Shown here: piece after piece, positions 33,666-64,000 of the stretch
How the letters are laid out: every line of letters begins with the position of its first letter
Numbering within the stretch: the first letter of the stretch is position 1
Virus record (IMG/VR): IMGVR_UViG_3300034019_001677
Location: 4,047 to 68,046 of that record
Direction: 5' to 3' (one strand)
DNA length: 64,000 bases
From: a virus
Notes under the pieces: model-generated
The model's database searches: none
Seen by the model: the letters and a program-made list of their open reading frames with translations, nothing else
What the model was told of the DNA's origin: nothing
Program-made: the position numbers and the translations under genes

Positions 33666-33907
33666 GCCAGGGGAAGGCCTCAACCGCTGCACGACCTCAG
33701 AATCTGCTGCTGACAGTGGCCGATGCCGCGGAAGCGTTGAGTGTGAGCGAGAAGTACATCAGGCGCCTGACTCTGCGCGATGCACTGCAACAGCGCCTGA
33801 TCAGCTACGCGGCTGAGGTGCGATCGGGTCACCACCAGGCCCCACCGTCACCGACCGCAGCACCGCCGCAAACAGCACCCGTTGCTGTTCAGGTGTCGCG
33901 CCATTGA
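33662..33907 (+). CDS. Excisionase-like HTH (possibly truncated)
   Basis: 'LLTVADAAEALSVSEKYIRRL' is HTH_17/Xis-like; converges on and overlaps the integrase 3' end. Confidence 0.55.
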   Translation: MSQGKASTAARPQNLLLTVADAAEALSVSEKYIRRLTLRDALQQRLISYAAEVRSGHHQAPPSPTAAPPQTAPVAVQVSRH

Positions 33908-35117
33908 AGAACCACGGATCCTGCAGCGCTGAATAGGCAGCAGGATCAATGGCCGGTTGCTCCACGCGCTGCTCCGTCTCGATTCGCTGCCGCTGCTCCG
34001 CCACTGCTGCCGCCATCGCCCGGTTGTCCGGGTTACGGGCCGCCATCCGCTCCATCAGCTCCAGCTCGCCGCGCATCGCTGCCAGTGCTGGATCTTCTGC
34101 TGCTGGTTCGCTCAGCACGGCCGCTAGTCGCCGCGCCTCAGCCACGCACGCCTCGACAACTACCGGAAGGATTCGATCCTCCCTGGCTCCGCCACGGGCA
34201 TCGCAGAGCCGGTGCCGGCACCGCCACCACGCCACGCCGTTCGATGTGTTTCGTCGCAGCAGGTGGCCGCAGGATGCGCACCGCAGCAGCCCCGTCAGCC
34301 CGTGCCGGGTCTCGGTGGTGCCCGCTGCCTTGAACCGGTTGGTGGGTCGCTGCAGCAGTGCGGCCAGCTCCCGCCAGTCCTGTTCGCTGATTAGTGCCGG
34401 GTGCTGGTCGTAGTGGATCTCACCCCACTGCCGCCGCCAGCCCTTGCCGCTGCCCCTGTCGAGCTGGTGGCCGATGTGCCCGCGGATCACGGGATTCACG
34501 AACCACGCCTGCAGGTTGGTGGCGGCCGGCGTCCACGCGCACCACTGCGGCATGGAGCGGGCCACCGCCGCAAAGCTCGCCAGCCGCCGCAGCTCACGCA
34601 ACACGCGCAACGCCTCCCCCCAGTGCTCAGGGTGCGGCTCCAGCCGATGGCCTGGCCCGTTCTGGTAGCCGAAGGGCTTGCGCCGCCTGAGGTGCCGTCC
34701 CTCGGCGCGGTAGACGGTGAACTGGCGACGTAGGCGCATCGAGAGCATGCGCGATTCCATCTCCGCCAGGCCCGTCTGCAGCCTGGCCATCAGGAACCCC
34801 TGAGGAGTCGCCGTCTCGATCGCGCCACCGTCCAGGGCCCGAACCGTGACGCCCCGCGCCTCGCACTGGGCCAGCAGGGCGTCGGTGTAGGCCGCATCAC
34901 GCCCCAGTCGGTCCACGCGGGTCACCAGCAGCTCCGAGACCTCGCCGGCCTGCACCATCGCCATCAGCTCCAGCAGTCCGTCCCGATCCGAGCTGCGGCC
35001 TGTTTCTATGTCGGTGATCACACGGCTGCAGCCGGCGGCATTGAGGCGGCTGACCTGGGCGGGGAGGGCGTCGGCCTGATCGTCCTTGCTGACGCGGGCG
35101 TAGCCGATGGCAGCCAT
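33801..35117 (-). CDS. Large serine recombinase (integrase; XisF-like)
   Basis: 'GYARVS' catalytic Ser, 'VTRVDRLGR', 'PFGY' recombinase domain, Zn ribbon 'LTGLLRCASCG...WWRC...C'. Confidence 0.95.
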   Translation of the reverse strand: MAAIGYARVSKDDQADALPAQVSRLNAAGCSRVITDIETGRSSDRDGLLELMAMVQAGEVSELLVTRVDRLGRDAAYTDALLAQCEARGVTVRALDGGAIETATPQGFLMARLQTGLAEMESRMLSMRLRRQFTVYRAEGRHLRRRKPFGYQNGPGHRLEPHPEHWGEALRVLRELRRLASFAAVARSMPQWCAWTPAATNLQAWFVNPVIRGHIGHQLDRGSGKGWRRQWGEIHYDQHPALISEQDWRELAALLQRPTNRFKAAGTTETRHGLTGLLRCASCGHLLRRNTSNGVAWWRCRHRLCDARGGAREDRILPVVVEACVAEARRLAAVLSEPAAEDPALAAMRGELELMERMAARNPDNRAMAAAVAEQRQRIETEQRVEQPAIDPAAYSALQDPWFFNGATPEQQRVLFAAVLRSVTVGPGGDPIAPQPRS

Positions 35118-35280
35118 AGGATCAGCCCAGAACGGCCGCTCACACTACCCTGCGCTATGGACACTTTTTCCTTAGATAGCGGCAGCAGAGCGCTCGATTC
35201 GTGGTAGGGTCTGCCTATCGGAAGCGCCGGGCAAGGCCCGCCACCGATCACCCCATCGCCCGGCACTGGCCGGAGGAACC

Positions 35281-35655
35281 ATGGCAACCAATCTCACCAC
35301 TATTGCCGGCACCGCAGGCCGCATCTCCGGCACCACCGCCCGGGGCCTGCTCTGGCTCAACGAACAGATCGACTGGGCCGAGGTAGCCCAGATCGTGCTA
35401 CGCGGACTGCAGGTTTTGATCGTGCTCACCCTGCTGGCAGGTCATTACTGCCGCCGAGCCTGGGATCACCTGCCTGCGCTCAGTGAGCAGCTGGGCCGCT
35501 GGTATGCCGGCCTGATGGCGCCCGCTGCTGTTGAGCTTGCCTCCGCGCCAGTGACGCAGATGCAGCTCCTGCTGGCGCCGATCACGGCCACAATGGCCGC
35601 GGCCCGAGAGGCACTGGAGCGGCTTGTGCGGCGCCTCTATCCCGTGCTGGCCTGA
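35281..35655 (+). CDS. Hypothetical membrane-associated protein
   Basis: GGAGG ribosome-binding site; hydrophobic segment. Confidence 0.6.
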   Translation: MATNLTTIAGTAGRISGTTARGLLWLNEQIDWAEVAQIVLRGLQVLIVLTLLAGHYCRRAWDHLPALSEQLGRWYAGLMAPAAVELASAPVTQMQLLLAPITATMAAAREALERLVRRLYPVLA

Positions 35656-41053: not shown

Positions 41054-43825
41054 TCAGCAGCATCTGGCGCGCAGGGCATCGAGGCGATCCTGAATGACGG
41101 AATCCATCAGTGCTTTCACGCTGTTCTTCATGCTGACCAGCTTCTCGAACACCTTCCGATCACCGCCGGCATCCGGGTGGTGCTTCATGGCCAGCTTGCG
41201 GAAGGCCTTGTCCACATCGGCCTTGGTGGCCTTTTTCGGATCCAGGCCGAAGGCCACCCAGGGGCGGAAGTTCTTGAGGATGTCCACCCCGTTGATGACG
41301 CTGCCGCCGTCCTTGAGGCCACGCTCATCCCTGGGGACCGCAACGAACCGCCGATAGAGCTGGCGCCACTCCTCCTCGGCGTTCTTGCCCTTGAGGGTGC
41401 GGGGGTTGTCACCCACGACCGACTGCTGAAAATTCTTGTTGGCCATCAGGGCGGCCGTGCTCTTCACGTTGAACGACTTGAAAACCGCCGATCGCATCTC
41501 CCTGATGGTCATGGGCTTGGCCGTGCTGGCCGGGCCCTTCCCTTGGCCCTCCGATGCCTTCTCACTTCCTCCCCTGCTGGAGGGGGCCTCCTTGGCCCTG
41601 GCGCCACCGCTGACAGCAGGGCCGCCTTCCTTGCCAGCCGCCAGGGCGAGAATCCGCGTCATCTTCTGCTGATTGGCGCCGCCGGGGGTCTTGCGGCAGA
41701 CCTTGCCCATCGAAATGCAGCTGGCCCCGCAGCTGTAGCCGGTGCGGCACTGCCGCTTCACGGCATCGATGCGCTGCGTGGCCATCGCCTCACGGATCAG
41801 CCGCTGGATTCGCTGCTCACGGCTGTCGGTGCGGCGGTTCATGCTGCCGAAGGTGTTGGTGCCCACGGCCTTCATCAGCTCATCCAATGCGGGGGCCATC
41901 TTCGCGATCTGCTCCTTGTTGGGCCACAGGGGGCTCTCACCGCCCAGGCCTGAGAGGTAGGTGTTCTCCTGCCCCTTGGTCTTCAGCTTGTGCTGCACGT
42001 ACCGCTCGAAGGTGCGGGCGAACACCTCACGGCCTGAAGTCCAGTATGAATATTGAGCGCTGCCAGCTTTGATTCCATAGCCTGCCAGTCCGTCTCTCAG
42101 GGTAAACCGAAAGTCTGTGTCATCGATAGCCTTTCGGACGCTATCCATAGCCTTCCAAACCGGATTATCCGCCTGGCTTTTAGTCCCACCATTCGGGTCC
42201 CAGTACAAACCACTGGTTTGCTCGCTCAGGTATGCTGGTCCACTCCTCATGCGTGATTTACCGCGGGGAGTTTGCTGGCCGATGTAATCATCCAAGGCGT
42301 GCCCCCATTCGTGGGCCAGGGTGCCGACACCGTTCTTCCGGGTGATGTTGATCACTTTTGTCCCCGGCTCGTAGTGTGCCGCGGCCCGACCCTTGCCTCT
42401 GGCTCCGAAGGCCAGGCCCAGCTGGCCGTCCAGCGAGATGGCCCGATCTGGGAGCCCCGTCACGTCCGCCAGGTCGACCAGGGCCTCGGCGGTCTTGCGC
42501 AGGTGGTGGGCCCTTTCTTCATCGGTGACGCTGTTGCCGAACTGCAGGCCCCGCATTCCCATTCGGTTGGCGAGCACCGTGGTGGACCCGGCCGGCGTGT
42601 CATCGACACCCAGGGCGCGGCCGCCAGTGCGGACCGCCCTCTTCACGTAGAGGTCGGCGGCGTTGATGGTCGCCCCGCCGCGCTGCACCCCGGTGACCTT
42701 GTCGATCGAGGCCCCCCCCAGGATCTCCTGTGTGGCGTTGCGCATCACATCCGCCAGCTCAGCGGTGCTCTTTCCGTCGTTGGCCTTCTTGAGGCGGACC
42801 CCCAGGGTGTTGATCTGCCCGGTAACTGACGTTTTGGAGTAGCTGCCTCTGCTGGCCTTGTTGGTGAGGTCCACCAAGGAGTTGGCCAGGGGGTTGTAGC
42901 GATCGTATGTGTCCAGGGAGCGATTCCCCCTGATGGCCGTGATCCGGTTGGTGGTGGCCCGGGAAATTTCCGCGAGCATCTCGCGCGGATCAGCATCATC
43001 CCGTCGGCGGTCGATGATGCCCTTCACCTCCTGAAGGTGGTCGTAGTAGAGCTTGCGCATCTCCGCCGGGGTCTTCTTCCCGGTGATCTGGGCCCGGTTG
43101 TAAGCCTGGAAGGCCTTATCGGTGAAAGGCTGCGCCGGAAAGGATTTCAGGGCCAGGTGGCCGGCCAGGCGGGTGAGGTAGTTGGCGTTGGTGAGGCCTT
43201 CCGTCAGGTCGAGCGGCTCGGCTTTGAGCAGCTTGTCTCGGGTGACCATGGCCGCGGCCGTGCCATCGGCTTCTGCCTCGCTCAGCGAACGCCACTGGTT
43301 GGCCTTGTGCCGAGCGGAGCCCTTCAGGTCTTCCCCGACATTCCCCACAGTTGACGGCCTGGCGAACTCGTAGTCCGGATCCGCTGCCTTGGCGGCCCGA
43401 TCGGCCTCACCCCGGGGGGTGCCGGCCGGCGCCATAGGGCGATCGCCGGCGCTTGGGCGTGGCTGGCGGGCCTGTGCGGCGGCCTTGGCCGCGGCCTCTG
43501 CCGCCTGTGCTGCTTGGGCCTTCTCTGCCGCGGCCTGCTGGCGTACCCCCCGCAGCTGGCCCGCTTTCTCCCCCCGGCGGGTGGCGATACCCTCGGCCAG
43601 CTCACCGGCCTCCTTGGCCTTCACCGGGGCAATGCCGCGCTGGCTGGAGGCGCCCCCGGCCGCCAGGGCCAGCAGGCGCTTGAGGCGTTCCTTCCCGATC
43701 GCCGACCCCGGGCTGGTGCGGCATTCCTTCCGCAGGGAGATGCAGGTGCTCCCGCAGCTGTAGCCCGTGCGGCACTGCCGTTTGAGGGCGTCGATCCGCT
43801 GCTGCAGGCTGTCAGCCAGGTTCAT
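41054..43825 (-). CDS. Polyvalent protein: Cys4 motif, LPD1-like domain, Cys4 motif, DnaJ domain
   Basis: 'GLQFGN...LGLAFGARG...AHYEP...AHEWGHALD...EVFARTFE' is LPD1-like; 'AFRKLAMKHHPDAGG' is a J-domain. Confidence 0.85.
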   Translation of the reverse strand: MNLADSLQQRIDALKRQCRTGYSCGSTCISLRKECRTSPGSAIGKERLKRLLALAAGGASSQRGIAPVKAKEAGELAEGIATRRGEKAGQLRGVRQQAAAEKAQAAQAAEAAAKAAAQARQPRPSAGDRPMAPAGTPRGEADRAAKAADPDYEFARPSTVGNVGEDLKGSARHKANQWRSLSEAEADGTAAAMVTRDKLLKAEPLDLTEGLTNANYLTRLAGHLALKSFPAQPFTDKAFQAYNRAQITGKKTPAEMRKLYYDHLQEVKGIIDRRRDDADPREMLAEISRATTNRITAIRGNRSLDTYDRYNPLANSLVDLTNKASRGSYSKTSVTGQINTLGVRLKKANDGKSTAELADVMRNATQEILGGASIDKVTGVQRGGATINAADLYVKRAVRTGGRALGVDDTPAGSTTVLANRMGMRGLQFGNSVTDEERAHHLRKTAEALVDLADVTGLPDRAISLDGQLGLAFGARGKGRAAAHYEPGTKVINITRKNGVGTLAHEWGHALDDYIGQQTPRGKSRMRSGPAYLSEQTSGLYWDPNGGTKSQADNPVWKAMDSVRKAIDDTDFRFTLRDGLAGYGIKAGSAQYSYWTSGREVFARTFERYVQHKLKTKGQENTYLSGLGGESPLWPNKEQIAKMAPALDELMKAVGTNTFGSMNRRTDSREQRIQRLIREAMATQRIDAVKRQCRTGYSCGASCISMGKVCRKTPGGANQQKMTRILALAAGKEGGPAVSGGARAKEAPSSRGGSEKASEGQGKGPASTAKPMTIREMRSAVFKSFNVKSTAALMANKNFQQSVVGDNPRTLKGKNAEEEWRQLYRRFVAVPRDERGLKDGGSVINGVDILKNFRPWVAFGLDPKKATKADVDKAFRKLAMKHHPDAGGDRKVFEKLVSMKNSVKALMDSVIQDRLDALRARCC

Positions 43826-45792
43826 GTCTCTGCTCCATGCCCTGAAACGTAGGCATCACACACAGCGCCCATCGCCACCAGGTCGACGCCATCGATTCGG
43901 CGGATGGTGGCATTGGCGCCAATGGCATCACGAATCCCCCGCAGGTGCTGGTGTCCCAGGGCCAGCAAGTAGGCGCCGGTGGAGGGCTCGAACACCTCCC
44001 AGGCGCCGCTCAAATCCGGCCCCACCGCCACGGGGTAGGGGAGGGTCTGGCCGTAGGGCCCCTGCAGGCGGCCGATGCCCGGGCCATCCATCCGCACGCT
44101 CACCCCGAGGATCTGATGCACCTGGCCGGTGGCATCGTTGCGGGGCTCTTCATCCCGGCGGCGCTTGCGGCGGCCGCGGTGCTCGGTGATCTGCTCGGCC
44201 AGGGCCTGGGCCCGTTCTTCGCAGGCATCACAGCAGGGCTCATCGTCGGCATCGGTGCGGGGCGGAGTCTCGGGCGGCGCGGCGCCCTCCAAGGCCGCCT
44301 CATCGCCGGCAGCCTGAGCCTGCCCTGGAGGGGTTGCGGCCGGGTCGCCCTCGAGCGTGCCGCCAAACTCCACCGGGTCATCCTGCTCCGGCTGCGGAAT
44401 GGAACCATCCGCCTCGCGGTTCAACAGGGTGGTGTCGAGGCTGAAGCGGGGCTTCCCGAACCGCGCGAGCGCCACCTCGTTGGGCTGCAACACAGCGGTC
44501 TGGATGTATTGGCTGTCGGCCGCGGCCATTTTCTGGCGCAGCTCGGCCTGCTCGTCATCCGTGGGGGTGTAGGTGGGGCGAAAGGTGATCTCCCAGTCGG
44601 CGGGCAGGGCCTTGCCCTTCCAGGGGCCATCAGAGCAGGCCATCACCAGCTCGTAGATGTGCTGGAGGGGTTCTTTGAGGTGCTGGGCCTGCCAGTCGGC
44701 CACCTCGTTCCCGAAGGCCGCCTGTTCGCTGCGGCCATCGGCGCCGAGGCCCGAGGGGCTCTCGCCCCATAGCAGGGTGTGGGGCAGGCCGCTGGCGCCG
44801 GTGATCTCGGACTTCAGGCTGGTGAGGATGTCGGCGATACCGGCGGCCGAGCGGGTGAAGTTGGTGAGCTCCTCGTTGTCGTTCAGCAGGTAGGCGCCGA
44901 TGGTGGAGCGGGCCAGGGCGTTGGCCTGCAGTCGCGCGCGCAGCTTGTCTTCGCCACCGGCGGCGAGCATGTTGGAGAGGCCCGGCAGCTTGTGCACCAC
45001 CAGGTCGAAGTCGTGCAGGATGTCGGCGGCGCTCTGCTGGCCGGTCTCGTAGCGCTTGAACACGTCCCAGATCAGATCCACCACCGAGACGCCCCACCAC
45101 TGCCGCTCCTGCTGCGAGCGCCAGGAGCAGGGCATGCCCTCGATGCGGATCACCCGGCTGCTGTGGATCTCGATCTGGGTGGCATCGGTGAGGCCGAGGC
45201 CGGCGCTGGTGACTTGCTTGGCACCGGCCTGCTCGTTCAGCTTCTGGAGGTCGCGATCGGCCTGGGTCCAGAACCAGTAGCGCTCCGGTTCCCCGATCCC
45301 TGACCAGCCGGCAGCGGGGTAGAGGCGCCAGCGATCGATCGGGTAGAGGCCATGGATGGTGCGCAGCCGCTTGAGATTCAGCGGCTGATCGATCGGCGTG
45401 CGGTCGTCGGCAATCACGATGATCGCGCCGCCGCCGTAGAGGCGGCTGTAGGTGGCGGCCTGGGCGAGGGCCTGGCGGAGGTGCAGCTTCTCGCTCCAGC
45501 CGACCACATCATCGAGCTGCTTTTTCATGCGGCTGGAGGTTTCATCCCCCACGCTCAAATCCCAGCCGCTGCGGGTGCCCTGCTGGGGGAGCTTTTCGAC
45601 GATGCGGCGGATCAGCCAGCTCTGTTCGTAGAGGGCATCAATGGCCCTTTCTGTGAGGATGCGCGAGCGCTTGACGCCGATTGCCTCGTTGCGGTCCTTG
45701 GCGGTGCCCAGGCCGGTGAGCACATTGATGAGCGCACCATCAAGGCGATACCCGCCGCCGGGATCATTCGACTGCAGGAAACCGATCGCCAC
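43822..45792 (-). CDS. Portal protein (DUF1073 type) with C-terminal extension
   Basis: 'LY..SWL.RRIVE.L...R.G...RLYGG...IH.SR...SG.PHT.LWGESP.GL...W.I.F.P'. Confidence 0.9.
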   Translation of the reverse strand: MAIGFLQSNDPGGGYRLDGALINVLTGLGTAKDRNEAIGVKRSRILTERAIDALYEQSWLIRRIVEKLPQQGTRSGWDLSVGDETSSRMKKQLDDVVGWSEKLHLRQALAQAATYSRLYGGGAIIVIADDRTPIDQPLNLKRLRTIHGLYPIDRWRLYPAAGWSGIGEPERYWFWTQADRDLQKLNEQAGAKQVTSAGLGLTDATQIEIHSSRVIRIEGMPCSWRSQQERQWWGVSVVDLIWDVFKRYETGQQSAADILHDFDLVVHKLPGLSNMLAAGGEDKLRARLQANALARSTIGAYLLNDNEELTNFTRSAAGIADILTSLKSEITGASGLPHTLLWGESPSGLGADGRSEQAAFGNEVADWQAQHLKEPLQHIYELVMACSDGPWKGKALPADWEITFRPTYTPTDDEQAELRQKMAAADSQYIQTAVLQPNEVALARFGKPRFSLDTTLLNREADGSIPQPEQDDPVEFGGTLEGDPAATPPGQAQAAGDEAALEGAAPPETPPRTDADDEPCCDACEERAQALAEQITEHRGRRKRRRDEEPRNDATGQVHQILGVSVRMDGPGIGRLQGPYGQTLPYPVAVGPDLSGAWEVFEPSTGAYLLALGHQHLRGIRDAIGANATIRRIDGVDLVAMGAVCDAYVSGHGAET

Positions 45793-45893
45793 GGGCCGAT
45801 GCGCACAGGGCCAGGGTAGGCCTTATCACACAGGGACAACCTTGGCTGGGGATGTTACAACCCATAGGCTGGTAGAACATCCGACCTATCCCG

Positions 45894-46892
45894 GTGAGCT
45901 CGCCGCTGGACGCGATGATGAAGGCCTACGGGCGGCTGCCGATCCCCACCAGGGAGGAGCAGGTGCTGCTGGGCCGGAAGATTCGCGCCTGGCTGGACTG
46001 GGAGCCATCGCTCGAGGAGCAACAGCAGGGCATCACCGAACCCCCGAAGCGGCTGCGGCGGGCTGGGGAGCGGGCGCGAGAGCAGTTGATCAGCAGGAAC
46101 ATGCTGCTGGTGGCGGACCAGGCCCGTTCATTTTCGGTGAGCTCCACGCCGGCGCTGGAGCTGCAGGATCTGATCCAGGAGGGTGCGATCGGGCTATGCA
46201 GGGCGGCGGAGCTGTTTGATCCGGCCCTGGGCTATGCCTTCTCCACCTATGCGGTGCTGTGGATCCGGCAAAGCATGACGCGGCTGGTACATGGCTCTGG
46301 AGCCATCCATATCCCCACGAAACGATCCCAGGCGATGCACGGGCTGCGGAAGTGGTGCGAGGCGTTCAGTGCGGAAGAGGGGAGGCCTCCCACCGATGCC
46401 GAGCAACTGGCAGCAGGCATCACCGGCGTGCAGCGGCCCGGTGATCTGGTAATCCTGCGCCAGGCGGCGGCCGTCTACCAGCTGCGCTCTCTCGATGTGG
46501 TGATGGGTGATGAGGATGGCGACACCTGGTTGAGCACCGTGGCGGCCCCTGCAGATGATCCGCAGCCAACCGCCAGCAACAGGGAGTTGGATCAGGTACT
46601 GCAGATGCTGCAGCCCTGGCCGGTGCTGCAGGAGGTGATGGAACGGCGGCTGGCAGGCCAGACATTCTGGGAGATCAGCCTGGCAATGGGAATGAGCGAG
46701 CGGGCGGCGATTCGCCGCGGACGGCAGGCGCTGGCGATGGCGCAGCTGTTGGCGCGCAACAGCGCCATGGGGGATGAGCTGCAGGAGGAGGAGCTGGATT
46801 CTGATGAACCGCCAGCGGAAACTGCGCCGGCGCCGCCGCAGCATGTGGTGTACGTGCAGCCGTCCCTCCTGCCAGAGCCTGTACCCGCCTAG
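45894..46892 (+). CDS. Phage sigma70-family (RpoD/group-2-like) sigma factor
   Basis: 'AREQLISRNMLLV...DLIQEGAIGL.RA.E.FDP..GY.FSTYA..WIRQ' region 2. Confidence 0.92.
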   Translation: MSSPLDAMMKAYGRLPIPTREEQVLLGRKIRAWLDWEPSLEEQQQGITEPPKRLRRAGERAREQLISRNMLLVADQARSFSVSSTPALELQDLIQEGAIGLCRAAELFDPALGYAFSTYAVLWIRQSMTRLVHGSGAIHIPTKRSQAMHGLRKWCEAFSAEEGRPPTDAEQLAAGITGVQRPGDLVILRQAAAVYQLRSLDVVMGDEDGDTWLSTVAAPADDPQPTASNRELDQVLQMLQPWPVLQEVMERRLAGQTFWEISLAMGMSERAAIRRGRQALAMAQLLARNSAMGDELQEEELDSDEPPAETAPAPPQHVVYVQPSLLPEPVPA

Positions 46893-46905
46893 CACGTATG
46901 TTCCA
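46890..46905. promoter_or_regulatory. LexA-box-like site upstream of the LexA-like/nblA genes
   Basis: TAGCACGTATGTTCCA; close to RGTAC-N3-DGTWCB. Confidence 0.5.
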
Positions 46906-46947
46906 TTCCGGGGTAAAGTCGACCCGAAACCAGTCCATCACGATTTC

Positions 46948-47220
46948 ATGCGGGCACAGGCGCAACACCCCGAAGTCACCTCGGAGAGGGAGAAGGCGCT
47001 GACGGAGATGCAGCAGCGCACCCTGAATGCAGTTCGGGCCTACATCGATGCCAACGGCATCAGCCCCACCCTGAAAGATCTGAAGGCAGCGCTGGGGCTC
47101 TCATCTCTTAGCCCGGTGCAGTTCCACCTGAGGAACCTGCAGGCTGCCGGGGCGATCGAGCAGCGCCGTGGTGTGCCCCGCTCGATTCGGGTGTTGTGGC
47201 CCCGCCCTGAGGTGGCCTGA
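46948..47220 (+). CDS. LexA-like winged-HTH DNA-binding domain only (no S24 peptidase)
   Basis: 'LT..Q...L..V..YI...G.SPT.KDL...LGL.S.S.VQ.HL..L...G.I.....PRSI'. Confidence 0.85.
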   Translation: MRAQAQHPEVTSEREKALTEMQQRTLNAVRAYIDANGISPTLKDLKAALGLSSLSPVQFHLRNLQAAGAIEQRRGVPRSIRVLWPRPEVA

Positions 47221-47465
47221 TGGGCTGGGAGACGTTGCCAGGGGTGCCGGCTGAACCTGGGCCCATTGCGCTCACAGACGCCCAGGCTTTCGAGGTGGAG
47301 CGGTTTTCCCGGGCCATTGATGCCACCTCTGACCTGGAAGCTCTGCGGGGCCTGTGCAAGCAGCTGTTGCAGGCCTGGATGACACAGAAGTCTGTGACCT
47401 GCTGGGTCATGCGTCAAAACCTGTCAGAGCCTGCTCTAAACCACCGGATTTTGGAGGATTTCTGA
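47220..47465 (+). CDS. nblA: NblA-like phycobilisome degradation adaptor
   Basis: 'LTDAQAFEVERFSRAID...LRGLCKQLLQAWMTQK' helix-loop-helix NblA pattern. Confidence 0.75.
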   Translation: MGWETLPGVPAEPGPIALTDAQAFEVERFSRAIDATSDLEALRGLCKQLLQAWMTQKSVTCWVMRQNLSEPALNHRILEDF

Positions 47466-47773
47466 TGGTCTGGGGGCAATGGAGAGTGCCGGAGCTGAGC
47501 GAAGAAGACCGGTTTGCCTTGCGCGTGCTGGAGCTACAGCTTCTCGAAACAGTGGAGCGCCATCCCAGAACGTTGGTTCGGATGTGCGTGGTGCTGTCTG
47601 AGCAGTGCCGGGTCAGGGACAACATCATCAACAAGGCCAGCAAGCTGATTGCCGAGCTAGAAGCGAGCCAGGCCATTGCAGAGCCGCCGGCACCTCAGCG
47701 GCCTCAGCGGCGCCGGCGGCGCTGGCTGTGGCGCGGAGTTGAGTTCGTGCGGGCGGTGGTGCTGGGCCAATGA
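47465..47773 (+). CDS. Second, divergent NblA-like protein
   Basis: 'ELSEEDRFALR...L.EQCRVRDNII' aligns with canonical 'ELSLEQQF.IR...LYEQM.VRE'. Confidence 0.55.
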   Translation: MVWGQWRVPELSEEDRFALRVLELQLLETVERHPRTLVRMCVVLSEQCRVRDNIINKASKLIAELEASQAIAEPPAPQRPQRRRRRWLWRGVEFVRAVVLGQ

Positions 47774-47819
47774 TCGACCCTTCACACCTCGCCCAGCTGC
47801 AGGGCTGAACCGCAACGGT

Positions 47820-49376
47820 TCAGACCATGTTGATCCAATCGGCGATCATCGGCCGCACCCTGGCGCCGGCTTCACAGGCCGCGGCCAGGCTCATCACGGC
47901 GTCATCGTGGCAGCCGGCTGCAGCCTCGCGCGTACCATCCGGCCCCTGGCGGAACACGCGCATCTGCTCCCCGTAGATGCTGTCGGGCGGGATGCCCAGT
48001 TCGCCCTGCTCGAGCAGCAGCAGCACCCGGTCGGTCATGGCGATCTTGCTGGGCCTGGATGTGGCGAACTCCTCAATGGGCACCCCGGGCCGCAGGCGGG
48101 CCAGGGACTCGCCCACAGCGGCGCCGACGCCGTTCTTCTCGATCATCACCATCTCGGGGTTGTACTGATCCATCAGGCGGGCGGTGCGCTGCAGGCCGTA
48201 GTCGCGGCTGCGGCGCGCGTCGTTGAAGTAGGCCACCACCTGCCAGGGGTTGGTGGTGACATCGAGCACGGTGGTGACCCATTCGTCATCGCCGGAGCCG
48301 TTCGGGTCGATCCCGATCACGTAGTTGTGGCCCCTGGTGGGCAGATCCAGCCCGCCGATGGCCTCGCTGGCCTCGATCAGATCGTGGGGGTAGACCTCGG
48401 CATCGGTGGCGGCGAAATCGAGCTCGAACTCCTGCCGGTAGCGCTGCTCGGTGAGCTGGAATTTGCGCCGGGTGTTCTCCGCGTAGTTCGGATCCTGGCT
48501 GTAGATCGGGTGCTGGCTCCAGTGGATGGCCACCTTCGCGAAGCCACCGCAGGGGCTGCAGCGAAGGATCGGGATCCCGTTGACCGTGACCTCGCCGATC
48601 TGCTGCTCGCCGTGGTCCGTGCTCCAGTGCTCGTGGAAACGGCCACTGCGGCCGTTGGGGGTGCTCACCCACACGGCGCGGGCGCGGGGGCCCAGCAGGC
48701 TGAGGGTGGGCATGGCGCCGGTTTCAATGCCGCCCAGCTTTTCGATGAACGCACCCTCATCGAACAGCACGAAACTGGCCGATGGGATGCCCCGGGCGGC
48801 CCGCTCGGTGGGGGGCAGGAAATGGAGGCTGCCGCGGCCTTGGAAGACCAGTTTGCGAGCGGAATCCTTCGGGAGGGGTGGGCAGTAGGCACCCAGGCTG
48901 GCGGCCTGGCCCTTGATCCGGGCCGCCAATTCAGAGGCGTCCTCTCCAGTCTTGGAGAAGATGATTCCCACCCAGGCCGGCCGCTGGATGGCCTGCTGCA
49001 GCATGTAGGAGATGACGGTCTCTGAAACGCCGGTCTGGCGGCTCTTGAGCACGTAGGTGTTCTGGAATGCGCGGATGGTGCGCACCAGCGACAGCTGGTA
49101 GTCCCAGGCCTGGAAGGGCAGGTATTTGCCCTGGGAGGCGATGTAGGTGCGTGCGGCAAAGTCGGGCCAGCGCTTGGGGAGCTGATCCCACAGCTGCACC
49201 GCCTGCTCCTGGGAGAACAGGCCGCGGCGGGGCAGGTACTGCAGCACCGGCCGCACAACCTTCTTGCGGGGCAGGTGGGGGCCTGTGGAGCCCTTGCTGC
49301 GGGGCCAGGCATAGCAGGGTGTCTGGGTGCGGAGCTGGGCCTCGTATTCAGCCCAGGCCTCGTCATCCCAGGCCAT
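47820..49376 (-). CDS. terL: Terminase large subunit
   Basis: 'KSRQTGVS' Walker A, 'VLFDEGAF' Walker B, 'STPNG', nuclease 'IGIDP...HDDAVMS'. Confidence 0.95.
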   Translation of the reverse strand: MAWDDEAWAEYEAQLRTQTPCYAWPRSKGSTGPHLPRKKVVRPVLQYLPRRGLFSQEQAVQLWDQLPKRWPDFAARTYIASQGKYLPFQAWDYQLSLVRTIRAFQNTYVLKSRQTGVSETVISYMLQQAIQRPAWVGIIFSKTGEDASELAARIKGQAASLGAYCPPLPKDSARKLVFQGRGSLHFLPPTERAARGIPSASFVLFDEGAFIEKLGGIETGAMPTLSLLGPRARAVWVSTPNGRSGRFHEHWSTDHGEQQIGEVTVNGIPILRCSPCGGFAKVAIHWSQHPIYSQDPNYAENTRRKFQLTEQRYRQEFELDFAATDAEVYPHDLIEASEAIGGLDLPTRGHNYVIGIDPNGSGDDEWVTTVLDVTTNPWQVVAYFNDARRSRDYGLQRTARLMDQYNPEMVMIEKNGVGAAVGESLARLRPGVPIEEFATSRPSKIAMTDRVLLLLEQGELGIPPDSIYGEQMRVFRQGPDGTREAAAGCHDDAVMSLAAACEAGARVRPMIADWINMV

Positions 49377-55657: not shown

Positions 55658-56065
55658 TCACCAGTGCTCTGTGGGCTCAACAGGGCCCACGGGTTCGGGC
55701 AGTGCCAGCCAGGACGGGGCAACGGCGACTGGTGGTAGCGGTGCACTGCTGGCCTGGGCCTCTGTTTCCTTGGGATTGAGCAGGACCACGGGTGCCGCGG
55801 CCGCTGCAAGGGCAAGCAGATGCTCGGCTTCTTCGGGTGGCAGCTCCACCACGAATGCCGCAGTCGTGCGCCATAGCCGGCGGTTCGTGTCCCTGAAATG
55901 GCCAACGGCAAGATCGTCAGCCACATGGAACCGGTGCTCACCGGCGTAGAAGTAGCGGCCCAGGTATCTCTCCACTGGCACCACGTAGCTCTGCGTGGCA
56001 CCGCGATCAGTGATCAGGACCATGGCGCCGAGGGGCGGATGCTCGCGTTTCAGGGCAACGGCCAT
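55658..56065 (-). CDS. Hypothetical protein
   Basis: 135 aa, coupled. Confidence 0.55.
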   Translation of the reverse strand: MAVALKREHPPLGAMVLITDRGATQSYVVPVERYLGRYFYAGEHRFHVADDLAVGHFRDTNRRLWRTTAAFVVELPPEEAEHLLALAAAAAPVVLLNPKETEAQASSAPLPPVAVAPSWLALPEPVGPVEPTEHW

Positions 56066-56553
56066 CAGATCTTCTCCGCACCCATGGAAGGCAACAGGTT
56101 GCCGATGGCCTCTCGGGATGCCTGCAGCTGGCGGGCCTGTTCTGCGGTGGCCTGCACCGCCGCGTAGGCGAGCTGTCGACGGTTGCGGTGAATGGCGGCA
56201 ATCACCTCCTGGGGCAGCTCGATGCCGATCAGGCGAGGGCCCATGGCGGATTCGACCCTGAGAGGGCCGGATGAATCTCGAAAGCCACCGCCACGGCCGG
56301 TTCCGGAGTAGGCCGCGTGGCAGCAGCAGATCACGGCCGGATCAGAGCCTGCCATCCACTCACCGGTGGGCAACACGTCGTAGTCGCTCAGGTGGTCGTT
56401 GATGGCCCGGTCGTAGTTGCCCACGATGCCGGTGTCGAAACAGGCGAAGCAGGTGTAGCTCGGCAACACAAAAGCCGGGCCAGCGGGTGGGCGCCGCTTG
56501 TGGGGGGCAAGGTCGAAAACGGCGGCCGGTGATGGCGTGATGGAAGAGATCAT
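56065..56553 (-). CDS. Zn-binding replication-associated protein
   Basis: 'YTCFACFDTG...ICCC' directly downstream of the initiator. Confidence 0.6.
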   Translation of the reverse strand: MISSITPSPAAVFDLAPHKRRPPAGPAFVLPSYTCFACFDTGIVGNYDRAINDHLSDYDVLPTGEWMAGSDPAVICCCHAAYSGTGRGGGFRDSSGPLRVESAMGPRLIGIELPQEVIAAIHRNRRQLAYAAVQATAEQARQLQASREAIGNLLPSMGAEKI

Positions 56554-62208: not shown

Positions 62209-62703
62209 ATGGACTCCCCCAACGACCAAACCATCACCGGGTTCGCCTTGTTTGCCGATGGCAGCCTCCACCTGCAGCGTGGCTACGACCAGCAGCATTT
62301 TCAGCCCTGCCAGCCGGACCATCTGCTCTCCGACGACTTCAAGGCCCTGATCTGGGTCATCGAGGCCGCCCTGGGCGCCTGCCACAACGAGCTCCAGCAG
62401 ATCGAACCCTCCTCCATGGATTCGGTGTTGCGGGTGATAGCCCTTTGCAACAGTCACCGGGCGCCGGATCCATTCACCGGGGCCGTCATGACCTGGGTTC
62501 GTCCCCATCCCAACCGCTGCCACGACGATGCCCAGCCATCTGGAAGAGAGCTTTGCCAACCAATGGTTGGTCTCCTTCCCAGGTCTTCCCTTCGTCAGGG
62601 AACACACCTTGCCAGTGTGGAGCGACTGGGCGGTGTTCCAGAAGCAGGAGGGCCTGCGATCGCGTCTACCGCCCGCCTTCCGGGCGGACTTTGCCTGGCC
62701 TGA
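62209..62703 (+). CDS. Hypothetical protein (3' end uncertain)
   Basis: ATG 62209; overlaps the next gene by 176 bp. Confidence 0.4.
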   Translation: MDSPNDQTITGFALFADGSLHLQRGYDQQHFQPCQPDHLLSDDFKALIWVIEAALGACHNELQQIEPSSMDSVLRVIALCNSHRAPDPFTGAVMTWVRPHPNRCHDDAQPSGRELCQPMVGLLPRSSLRQGTHLASVERLGGVPEAGGPAIASTARLPGGLCLA

Positions 62704-63808: not shown

Positions 63809-64000
63809 GCATTGCCCTCTGCTGCGAGCCAGGCTGTCAGCAAGCCCACGACAACTGGCCGGGCCCGGGCCCTACAGGACAGCTCTGCCAAGACCACTGG
63901 GAGGCCTATTGCGACCGCCAGTGGTGGGAGGCCTGCACCGCCATCGATGAGGCCGGCCTGATGGTTTGGCCAGGGCATTCCCCTGCTCCCAGACTGACAT
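63805..64000 (+). CDS. Hypothetical Cys/His-containing protein (runs off the right edge)
   Basis: ATGA overlap; MSIALCCEPGC...LCQDHW. Confidence 0.45.
   Translation, partial: MSIALCCEPGCQQAHDNWPGPGPTGQLCQDHWEAYCDRQWWEACTAIDEAGLMVWPGHSPAPRLT

Follow-up and report, generated by a model that had tools for sequence, protein, structure and literature searches.

The DNA analysed here, referred to below as the window, is a stretch of 64,000 nucleotides (nt) that corresponds to bases 4047-68046 of a linear 68,046-bp virus record of IMG/VR (IMGVR_UViG_3300034019_001677; CheckV completeness, 96%). Its G+C content is 64.7% and its genes lie mostly on the minus strand. Between the minus-strand genes for the portal protein and the large terminase subunit (TerL) stand four plus-strand open reading frames (ORFs) of 332, 90, 81 and 102 amino acids (aa), called here the cassette, which encode a sigma-70 factor (ORF1), an isolated LexA DNA-binding domain (ORF2), very probably an NblA of picocyanobacterial type (ORF3) and a candidate second NblA-like protein (ORF4). 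The features of this locus are the following:

43822-45792, minus strand: portal protein, left flank of the cassette (Pfam Phage_portal_3, 4.3e-64; phrog_146, 5.8e-87)
45793-45893, no strand: divergent intergenic region between the portal and sigma genes, presumed promoter region of the cassette
45894-46892, plus strand: ORF1, sigma-70 factor, cyanobacterial group-1/2-like, 332 aa, GTG start (Sigma70_r2, 3e-12; phrog_351, 1.5e-26)
46891-46904, plus strand: LexA-box-like imperfect palindrome AGCACGTATGTTCC, which starts in the sigma stop codon, 44 nt 5' of ORF2
46948-47220, plus strand: ORF2, LexA DNA-binding domain alone, 90 aa (LexA_DNA_bind, PF01726, 1.2e-13, residues 16-78)
47220-47465, plus strand: ORF3, very probable Cyanobiaceae-type NblA, 81 aa, core at about residues 17-68
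47465-47773, plus strand: ORF4, lineage-restricted, 102 aa, putative NblA-like core at about residues 9-65
47770-47808, plus strand: remnant of a probable fifth gene, 12 codons (MIDPSHLAQLQG*), with an ATGA overlap with ORF4 at 47770-47773
47820-49376, minus strand: TerL, right flank of the cassette (phrog_2, 1.3e-33)

Positions and junctions confirm the description given by the initial annotation, namely four plus-strand genes within the packaging module, the last three of them coupled. Indeed, the stop codon of ORF2 (TGA, 47218-47220) overlaps the start codon of ORF3 (ATG, 47220-47222) and the stop codon of ORF3 (47463-47465) overlaps the start codon of ORF4 (ATG, 47465-47467), both junctions being a TGATG with a one-base overlap, and Shine-Dalgarno-like stretches lie 5' of ORF3 (GAGGTGG) and of ORF4 (GGAGGA).

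From sequence comparisons, we propose with high confidence that ORF3 is the phage copy of a picocyanobacterial NblA. A profile built from 15 close homologues of ORF3 and searched among 1.84 billion representatives retrieved 288 clusters at E<=1e-3, whose pattern is L(S/T)xxQxFExERxxRxIDxxxDxxxLRxxAKQLLQAWxxQKAATxW. In the parts of PMC12695635 that were searched, picocyanobacterial NblAs are described as very divergent, and a separate picocyanobacterial profile is used because general profiles miss them (the general NblA profile, Suppl. Data 10, has a cut-off of 20 bits). By its motifs, the ORF3 family is that of the NblAs of Cyanobium and Synechococcus 5.1/5.2/5.3 in Suppl. Dataset 11 of that paper. 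In the supplementary archive containing this dataset, KQLLQAW is found at 69 places; of the 30 listed, all but two are NblAs filed as 'Cyanobiaceae', among them those of Cyanobium NS01, PCC6307 and PCC7001 and of Synechococcus WH5701, CB0101 and RCC307, and the two remaining places are one same T7-like phage entry. As far as these parts show, the Cyanobiaceae-category NblAs share with ORF3 the pattern LxLSxxQxFExERxxRAIDxxxDxxxLxxxAKQLLQAW..QKAAT.W and a two-helix core of about 60 residues, and both are missed by PF04485. ORF3 differs from them in that it is phage-borne, carries a 16-residue N-terminal extension and has a Cys in place of the Ala before KQLLQAW.

Consistent with this assignment, ORF3 falls within the picocyanobacterial clade, scoring 108 bits against a profile of 123 family representatives. 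A canonical NblA alignment was assembled from 49 distinct sequences, taken from the PF04485 matches in 51 of 151 cyanobacterial genomes, and the 123-member ORF3 family was aligned to it with hhalign (probability 92.7%, P 4.3e-7), over 55 columns that cover the whole core; the score was 38.0, compared with 12.5 for the best column shuffle and 10.6 for the reversed alignment. The AlphaFold2 (AF2) model of ORF3 is a helix-loop-helix, with a short helix (residues 20-35) and a long one (39-68) at a predicted local distance difference test score (pLDDT) of 85-91. The identification of ORF3 as an NblA in the initial annotation is borne out by the clade membership and by the profile-profile homology, though PF04485 misses it.

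The same family is widespread in the presumed hosts, since it occurs in 145 of the 201 genomes of the host order (that of a Cyanobium metagenome-assembled genome, MAG), with 1-7 matches each. It is missing from the host-order genomes listed at 1.6-1.9 Mb. The Cyanobium MAG itself has four matches to the ORF3 family and none to PF04485, and the host of the phage is probably Cyanobium or Synechococcus subcluster 5.2. On the viral side, an ORF3-type gene is present in 38 IMG/VR loci, 27 of which have no cassette neighbours at all, and a search of BFVD with ORF3 returned as family members only an uncultured phage protein and C7F495 (75 aa, 31% identical). The 75-aa 'hypothetical protein' ACT65611.1 of PSS2, an isolated phage of Prochlorococcus MIT9313 (GQ334450.1 28259-28486; L121 2483-2710), scores 51.8 bits with the picocyanobacterial NblA-family profile and E 4e-4 with the canonical NblA hidden Markov model (HMM) in a five-protein search; by these scores it looks like an unannotated viral NblA. 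Homologues of ORF3 with 59-65% identity were also seen on two contigs binned as Candidatus Paceibacteria/Paceibacterota, of the candidate phyla radiation (CPR) (L001 and L002), which are probably mis-binned cyanophage or cyanobacterial contigs.

Several results weigh against this assignment and against the reading of the cassette built on it. Neither ORF3 nor ORF4 is matched by PF04485 (gathering score, 25 bits) at E<=1, nor does that model match anything in the full virus record at E<=10, and NCBIfam gave no NblA match on either ORF. Only 8 of the 123 ORF3-family members touch PF04485 (best E 0.023), fewer than the 11 that touch the unrelated Acyl-CoA_dh_C, and the family profile aligns with the NblA of PDB entry 1OJH at E 0.52 and over the first helix only. 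The literature searched yielded no experiment on any phage-borne Cyanobiaceae-type NblA, and no RNA run holding the cassette region is listed among public sequencing runs. A PDB sequence search with the 15-sequence ORF3 alignment found nothing. Foldseek and VIA-align searches of the ORF3 model against PDB returned generic helical hairpins, with NblA not among the matches listed; such a search is uninformative here because two-helix hairpins cannot be told apart.

For ORF4, described initially as nblA-like, the evidence is of intermediate strength. Its core is followed by a Pro-rich linker and then by an Arg-rich amphipathic tail that NblAs lack. Aligned with canonical NblA by hhalign, it gave only a moderate probability of 54.2% (P 1.3e-4, 54 columns, 31% identity), pairing LSEEDRF with LSlEQQF and QCRVRDN with QmMvreN, and its score of 26.3 exceeded both the best shuffle (16.5) and the reversed alignment (12.2). 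When the canonical NblA HMM was run unfiltered on the 918 stop-to-stop ORFs of at least 40 aa in the window, ORF4 ranked first (7.8 bits) and ORF3 second (7.6 bits), and the same two came first (23.2) and second (18.7) in a single-sequence hhalign comparison of 51 window proteins, the next scoring 14.5. The seven ORF4 homologues found all belong to this phage lineage and always lie directly after ORF3. On these comparisons we consider the term NblA-like somewhat better than even for ORF4; the initial description keeps its support in the similarity above controls and the top rank, and the profile comparisons that were positive for ORF3 are here moderate.

Against it, the scores of 7.8 and 7.6 bits (E ~0.2) are not significant alone, the ORF4 family amounts to 8 near-identical rows (effective number of sequences, Neff, 1.3), AF2 models the monomer poorly, breaking the long helix (pLDDT 53), and ORF4 has no similarity to ORF3 (hhalign, 0.4%). 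Its profile found no homologue in the 201 host-order genomes (all matches had E>0.05 and fell mostly on the Arg/Pro-rich tail; the best, at E 0.056, lay in this low-complexity part), tblastn against the phage collection gave no match at E<=10, and the ORF4 motifs are absent from the searched part of the published NblA set (PMC12695635 supplement). A metagenome scan for ORF4 diversity recovered one identical copy only, BFVD returned nothing, the best ESM Atlas score (0.84) was at chance level, and a PDB sequence search with the small ORF4 alignment gave nothing useful. NblD was also weighed as an identity for ORF4 and set aside, since NblD has four conserved Cys against two invariant ones in ORF4, whose best similarity is to NblA.

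The two genes upstream encode regulators. The sigma-70 identity of ORF1 was upheld by its matches to Sigma70_r2, phrog_351 and TIGR02997. Briefly, region 2 is recognised at 3e-12 and region 1.2 weakly (0.1); the best NCBIfam model is TIGR02997 (Sig70-cyanoRpoD, 4.4e-32), whose 111 bits are below the 384-bit equivalog cut-off and which aligns ORF1 residues 13-253 to profile positions 11-262 of 298, and TIGR02937 is matched over residues 61-282 at 60 bits, above its cut-off of 42.9. Group-2-like sigma factors are annotated in the Synechococcus siphoviruses S-CBS1, S-CBS3, S-LBS1 and KBS-S-2A (30-38% identical to ORF1 over 52-73% of its length), so that cyanophages of this kind are already known to encode sigma factors. 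The genes of these siphoviruses differ from ORF1 in genome position, and adjoining LexA-like or nblA genes were not seen in the matches, the neighbours not having been examined.

ORF2 shares with LexA (TIGR00498) the N-terminal winged-helix DNA-binding domain, matching that model at 5e-14 and 52 bits (cut-off 110.95) at profile positions 2-69 of 203 only, and its identity to the LexA of the Cyanobium MAG is 37% (over residues 2-69 of the latter). LexA has a cleavage site, a Ser-Lys S24 peptidase and a dimerisation domain, whereas ORF2, which ends at residue 90, has none of the three; it is therefore not a LexA, and RecA-stimulated self-cleavage is impossible. The protease-less LexA-like regulator of the initial annotation is thus retained. 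The same winged-helix domain is found in phage LexA-domain repressors (phrog_362, phrog_3502 and phrog_24920, all matched by ORF2), those of enterobacterial and Bacillus phages being 35-39% identical to ORF2; its relatives in the phage collection are repressor-like, with no cyanophage among the matches listed.

The cassette lineage comprises 11 distinct IMG/VR contigs. The full series of portal, sigma, LexA-like, ORF3 and ORF4 genes is present in nine, seven of which reach TerL while two end inside ORF4, and the two other contigs are cut by their ends. Within this lineage the cassette proteins are more diverged (81-84% identity) than terminase (95%) or portal (90%). In pairwise comparison with the most divergent relative, contig L070, the ratio of nonsynonymous to synonymous substitution rates (dN/dS) is 0.20 for ORF1, 0.38 for ORF2, 0.45 for ORF3 and 0.48 for ORF4, and all four ORFs are therefore genes under selection. 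In L070 (5318-5788), the same ATGA-overlapped start that follows ORF4 opens a 156-aa winged-helix regulator with weak matches to MarR and GntR (~1e-5); by this comparison the cassette appears once to have had a fifth gene, of which the window keeps 12 codons. Between the window and contig L069, the sigma and LexA-like genes are almost identical (dS ~0.04), while ORF3 has a dS of 0.07 and a dN of 0.05 and ORF4 a dS of 0.18 and a dN of 0.08, a pattern that suggests recombination or faster turnover limited to the nblA-type pair.

A more distant relative indicates the order in which the cassette was assembled. Among 401 host-order genomes searched with TerL, a single relative was found, contig C27 of genome G384 (48,776 bp), whose bases 1 to ~15,900 hold homologues of the replication and packaging genes of the window; identities are 83% for TerL, 79% for portal, 86% for the Mu-F-like protein, 58% for sigma and 52% for the LexA-like protein. 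This element has the sigma gene and the LexA-domain gene between TerL and portal, in the same order and orientation, and no ORF3 or ORF4 gene. The regulator pair is therefore the older part, to which the nblA-type genes were appended 3' in the lineage of the window, and the regulators are not dedicated to NblA.

The LexA box of the initial annotation is supported in part. The site AGCACGTATGTTCC is one mismatch away from RGTACNNNDGTWCB, which we take to be the cyanobacterial LexA-box consensus. Sites of such quality are not clearly enriched in the window (12, against 6.4 +/- 2.6 expected; 2 of 100 shuffles reach 12), nor is the host type GGTAC-N4-GTACC (10 sites, against 11.2 expected), among whose window matches at <=2 mismatches the cassette site does not appear. 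Upstream of Cyanobium lexA lies the box GGTACACCTGTACC, and the phage site differs from it at 3 of 10 half-site positions. The position is nevertheless kept in a distant relative. Indeed, six contigs have AGCACGTATGTTCC and the 8 nt that follow it without any change, when 7 of the 37 other spacer positions differ in L070, and G384 has AGCACTGACGTACC at the same offset, with the half-sites kept, all four central bases different and the rest of the spacer apparently unrelated to that of the window (by eye). The pattern AGCACNNNNGTWCC (AGCAC-N4-GTWCC) has one exact match in the window and one in the G384 sequence, at the same place. Judged by this conservation, the site looks like a real operator. 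Since it lies ahead of the LexA-like gene and G384 has it without any nblA, the simplest reading would be that ORF2 regulates itself. Host LexA might also act there, which would tie the cassette to induction, but this is a matter of conjecture. Elsewhere in the G384 relative, stretch L123 carries at 86-99 an exact match to the same consensus, RGTACNNNDGTWCB (AGTACATGTGTACC), just 5' of the homologue of window 56065-56553; no comparable site was seen at window 56065-56553 itself.

The presumed promoter region, between the portal and sigma genes, differs in L070 at 7 of 101 positions, compared with a dS of ~0.35 for the flanking genes. A scan of 45600-48000, which includes this region, found no sigma-70 consensus promoter. 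Just 5' of the sigma start, at 45850-45882, two 7-nt inverted arms (GGATGTT and AACATCC) stand 19 nt apart in this region, which is 93% conserved in L070; they could be an operator or an RNA structure.

As for lysogeny, two further features have to be considered:

33801-35117, minus strand: large serine recombinase, candidate integrase (Resolvase, 4.2e-30; Zn_ribbon_recom, 3e-07; Recombinase, 6.7e-4; phrog_95 integrase, 3.8e-45)
35118-35655, no strand: candidate region of the attachment site, where nucleotide homology to G384:C27 stops at window 35652

The Mu-F-like gene ends at window position 35652, beside the recombinase locus. Past the phage-like part, G384:C27 carries, within about 1.4-9 kb, rplS, gltX, polA, cysS, dxr, ilvH and other cyanobacterial housekeeping genes; such a host-joined related element was seen in 1 of the 401 genomes searched. 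This contig has the appearance expected of an integrated relative with its attachment site beside the recombinase gene, a mis-assembled contig being the alternative. From the gene content it is plausible that the window phage is temperate, as the initial annotation had it; the serine recombinase and the related element joined to host genes speak for this, and integration of the window phage itself was not seen.

Taking these results together, we favour with moderate confidence the view that the cassette is an auxiliary, host-derived operon of a freshwater picocyanobacterial phage with lysogenic potential, in which ORF3 is an NblA and ORF4 a probable second NblA-like protein. The older core of the operon would be a cyanobacterial-type sigma-70 factor and a LexA domain that cannot be cleaved by the RecA route, to which the two small genes would have been added 3' in this lineage, translationally coupled to the regulator pair. 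Expressed in the infected cell, ORF3 would most likely act as NblAs do, as a small helical dimer binding both the ClpC chaperone and phycobiliprotein rods; the phycobilisome would then be degraded by Clp protease, a degradation that would free amino acids and cut light harvesting. ORF4, probably a second and fast-evolving NblA-like protein whose pattern is nearer to canonical NblA, would be made in step with ORF3 and could serve as its partner subunit or as a second adaptor with another target. The analysis directly supports the gene structure, the family assignments, the conservation, purifying selection and a relative devoid of nblA, while ClpC and phycobilisome binding, bleaching, the timing of expression and the protein that binds the LexA-box-like site are what we infer.

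This view has to be set against one in which only ORF3 is an NblA and ORF4 is an unrelated small helical protein, its likeness to NblA being a pattern of two amphipathic helices; ORF4 might then, for instance, modulate the sigma factor or the LexA-like protein of the phage, or use its Arg-rich tail to bind nucleic acids or membranes. We take this seriously while finding it somewhat doubtful, both for ORF4 as an unrelated protein and for the roles suggested. It would account for the weak scores of ORF4 (7.8 bits with the canonical HMM, an hhalign probability of only 54%), for its lack of similarity to ORF3, for the 37-residue C-terminal tail (AEPPAPQRPQRRRRRW...) absent from NblAs, for the broken long helix and pLDDT of 53 in the AF2 model, for the confinement of its relatives to one phage lineage and for the three regulators that accompany it in the more complete cassette (L070). 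It fits less well with a match that covers the NblA core entirely and keeps its signature positions aligned, with a score above every column shuffle and the reversed control, with the rank of ORF4 above all other window ORFs and proteins, and with its occurrence only with ORF3, to which it is directly coupled. The initial annotation went further in the opposite direction and proposed a two-subunit NblA under a LexA box, linking antenna breakdown to induction. Spelled out, this model has ORF3 and ORF4 as an obligatory heterodimer like that of Synechocystis NblA1/NblA2; in the lysogen, LexA sitting on the box that follows the sigma gene would repress the operon until DNA damage and induction set off antenna breakdown, after which the uncleavable LexA-like protein would reset the LexA-controlled genes. 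An NblA1/NblA2 heterodimer is in print (J Biol Chem 2014, by its title in the references of PMC7865187), and tandem nblA pairs (two matches within ~300 nt) occur in 6 of the 51 positive genomes out of 151 searched. The tight TGATG coupling of ORF2, ORF3 and ORF4, the absence of ORF4 without ORF3, the half-sites whose offset is shared by two phages with only 52-58% identity between the flanking proteins, and the serine recombinase together with the related, apparently integrated element all agree with that model. Yet LexA-like sites are not enriched (12 against 6.4 +/- 2.6; host type, 10 against 11.2), the site departs at 3 of 10 half-site positions from the Cyanobium lexA box GGTACACCTGTACC, and autoregulation explains equally well a site that precedes the LexA-like gene and is present in a relative lacking nblA. 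Moreover, 27 other viral loci and PSS2 carry this type of NblA singly, and weak binding is to be expected of a LexA domain that lacks the dimerisation half. We regard the model of the initial annotation as unlikely.

A more elaborate form of it appears to us less probable still: a temperate freshwater cyanophage would have wired a two-part antenna-degradation adaptor (a host-type NblA and a phage-only subunit) to an SOS-type switch, AGCAC-N4-GTWCC being read by host LexA in the lysogen and by the uncleavable LexA domain of the phage after induction. If this were true, the phycobilisome would be dismantled exactly as the prophage wakes, and the SOS regulon of the host would be shut again. The reverse effect, interference, has very little probability in our judgement: the phage NblA-type proteins would form dead-end dimers with the NblA paralogues of the host, or occupy ClpC, and the antenna would be kept during lysogeny or early infection. 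A phage copy would find possible partners in the host, where this family has 1-7 paralogues, the phage copies have extra N- and C-terminal residues, and ORF3 and ORF4 evolve faster than the flanking genes (dN/dS 0.45-0.70, against 0.18-0.20 for sigma). However, ORF3 keeps the core positions common to host NblAs, no evidence of such a role was seen in the analysis, and the viral NblA that has been tested, that of the T7-like cyanophage S-TIP37, promotes phycobilisome degradation according to the parts of PMC12695635 consulted.

Compared with known systems, it is the arrangement that is new, since viral nblA, cyanophages with an integrase and two nblA copies, and the sigma factors of Synechococcus siphoviruses are already known. 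The NblAs of S-TIP37, Ma-LMM01 and PaV-LD resemble ORF3 as small viral NblAs that dismantle the host antenna in infection (PMC12695635; PMC11477984, both consulted in part), and in the consulted parts of the former viral NblA lowers photosynthesis of marine picocyanobacteria. The nblA genes of these other viruses have an exonuclease or HNH gene beside them (lytic podoviruses) or are solitary (freshwater phages), whereas ORF3 is of the host picocyanobacterial type, lies between TerL and portal, is coupled to sigma and LexA-like genes and has a second NblA-like gene 3' of it. The searched parts of the PMC12695635 set contain only three 'other cyanophage' NblAs (Ma-LMM01, PaV-LD and 'gene_1'), none of the ORF3 type, and no phage with the picocyanobacterial NblA type was found in the literature, with the limit that the supplement of that paper was covered in part and an entry may be missed. 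Likewise, the literature searched yielded no nblA that shares an operon with genes for a sigma factor and a LexA-domain protein. The NblA1/NblA2 genes of Synechocystis PCC 6803 (ssl0452/ssl0453) form an adjacent pair of small nblA-type genes, as ORF3 and ORF4 do, but they are clear paralogues that both pass PF04485, whereas ORF3 and ORF4 have no mutual similarity and neither passes. A further parallel is a marine cyanophage lineage with NblA, an integrase and a DNA polymerase that is split (bioRxiv 10.1101/325100, text seen in part), putatively temperate like the window phage and with two different nblA copies in three of four genomes; it is uncultured, marine and of a different genome type, and the part seen contains neither 'sigma' nor 'LexA'.

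These results have several implications. Host-type NblAs that are invisible to Pfam occur also in phages unrelated to this one by flanking genes, and viral nblA would be undercounted by Pfam-based surveys or by surveys limited to T7-like phages. The joining of nblA, a phage sigma factor and a protease-less LexA domain in a single operon, seen in one lineage, could give a handle on the timing of antenna destruction by a possibly temperate cyanophage, the coupled orphan NblA-like gene would offer a natural test of whether viral NblAs act as mixed dimers, and the comparison with G384 shows the order of assembly, regulators first and nblA genes later.

The remainder of the window encodes a major head protein, a head protease, a Mu-F-like protein and tail proteins, together with a KilA-N protein, a ParB-like protein, a Cro/CI-type helix-turn-helix (HTH) protein and the large serine recombinase. 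The best relatives of its TerL are the terminases of Cylindrospermopsis, Nodularia and Synechococcus phages (25-31% identity), and a nucleotide search of the phage collection with the window gave no match. The cassette sequence is present in 20 DNA runs from lakes and fresh water (18 studies). One public-run contig continues 5.4 kb beyond window base 64000, which is the end of the virus record, and an identical ORF4 is found on a metagenome contig of 113,169 bp (Ga0208594_1000005), where its location would leave ~50 kb of DNA beyond the record, whose end corresponds to about contig base 62,400. Possible readings are that the record represents a trimmed provirus or that the phage genome is larger, or circularly permuted. 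Finally, the gene adjoining portal (41054-43825, minus strand) encodes a 923-aa protein that combines an LPD1 'polyvalent protein' domain with a DnaJ domain at the C-terminus; in this protein a Cys-rich stretch (QCRTGYSCG..CIS..K.CR) occurs twice, near the N-terminus and at about residue 690.

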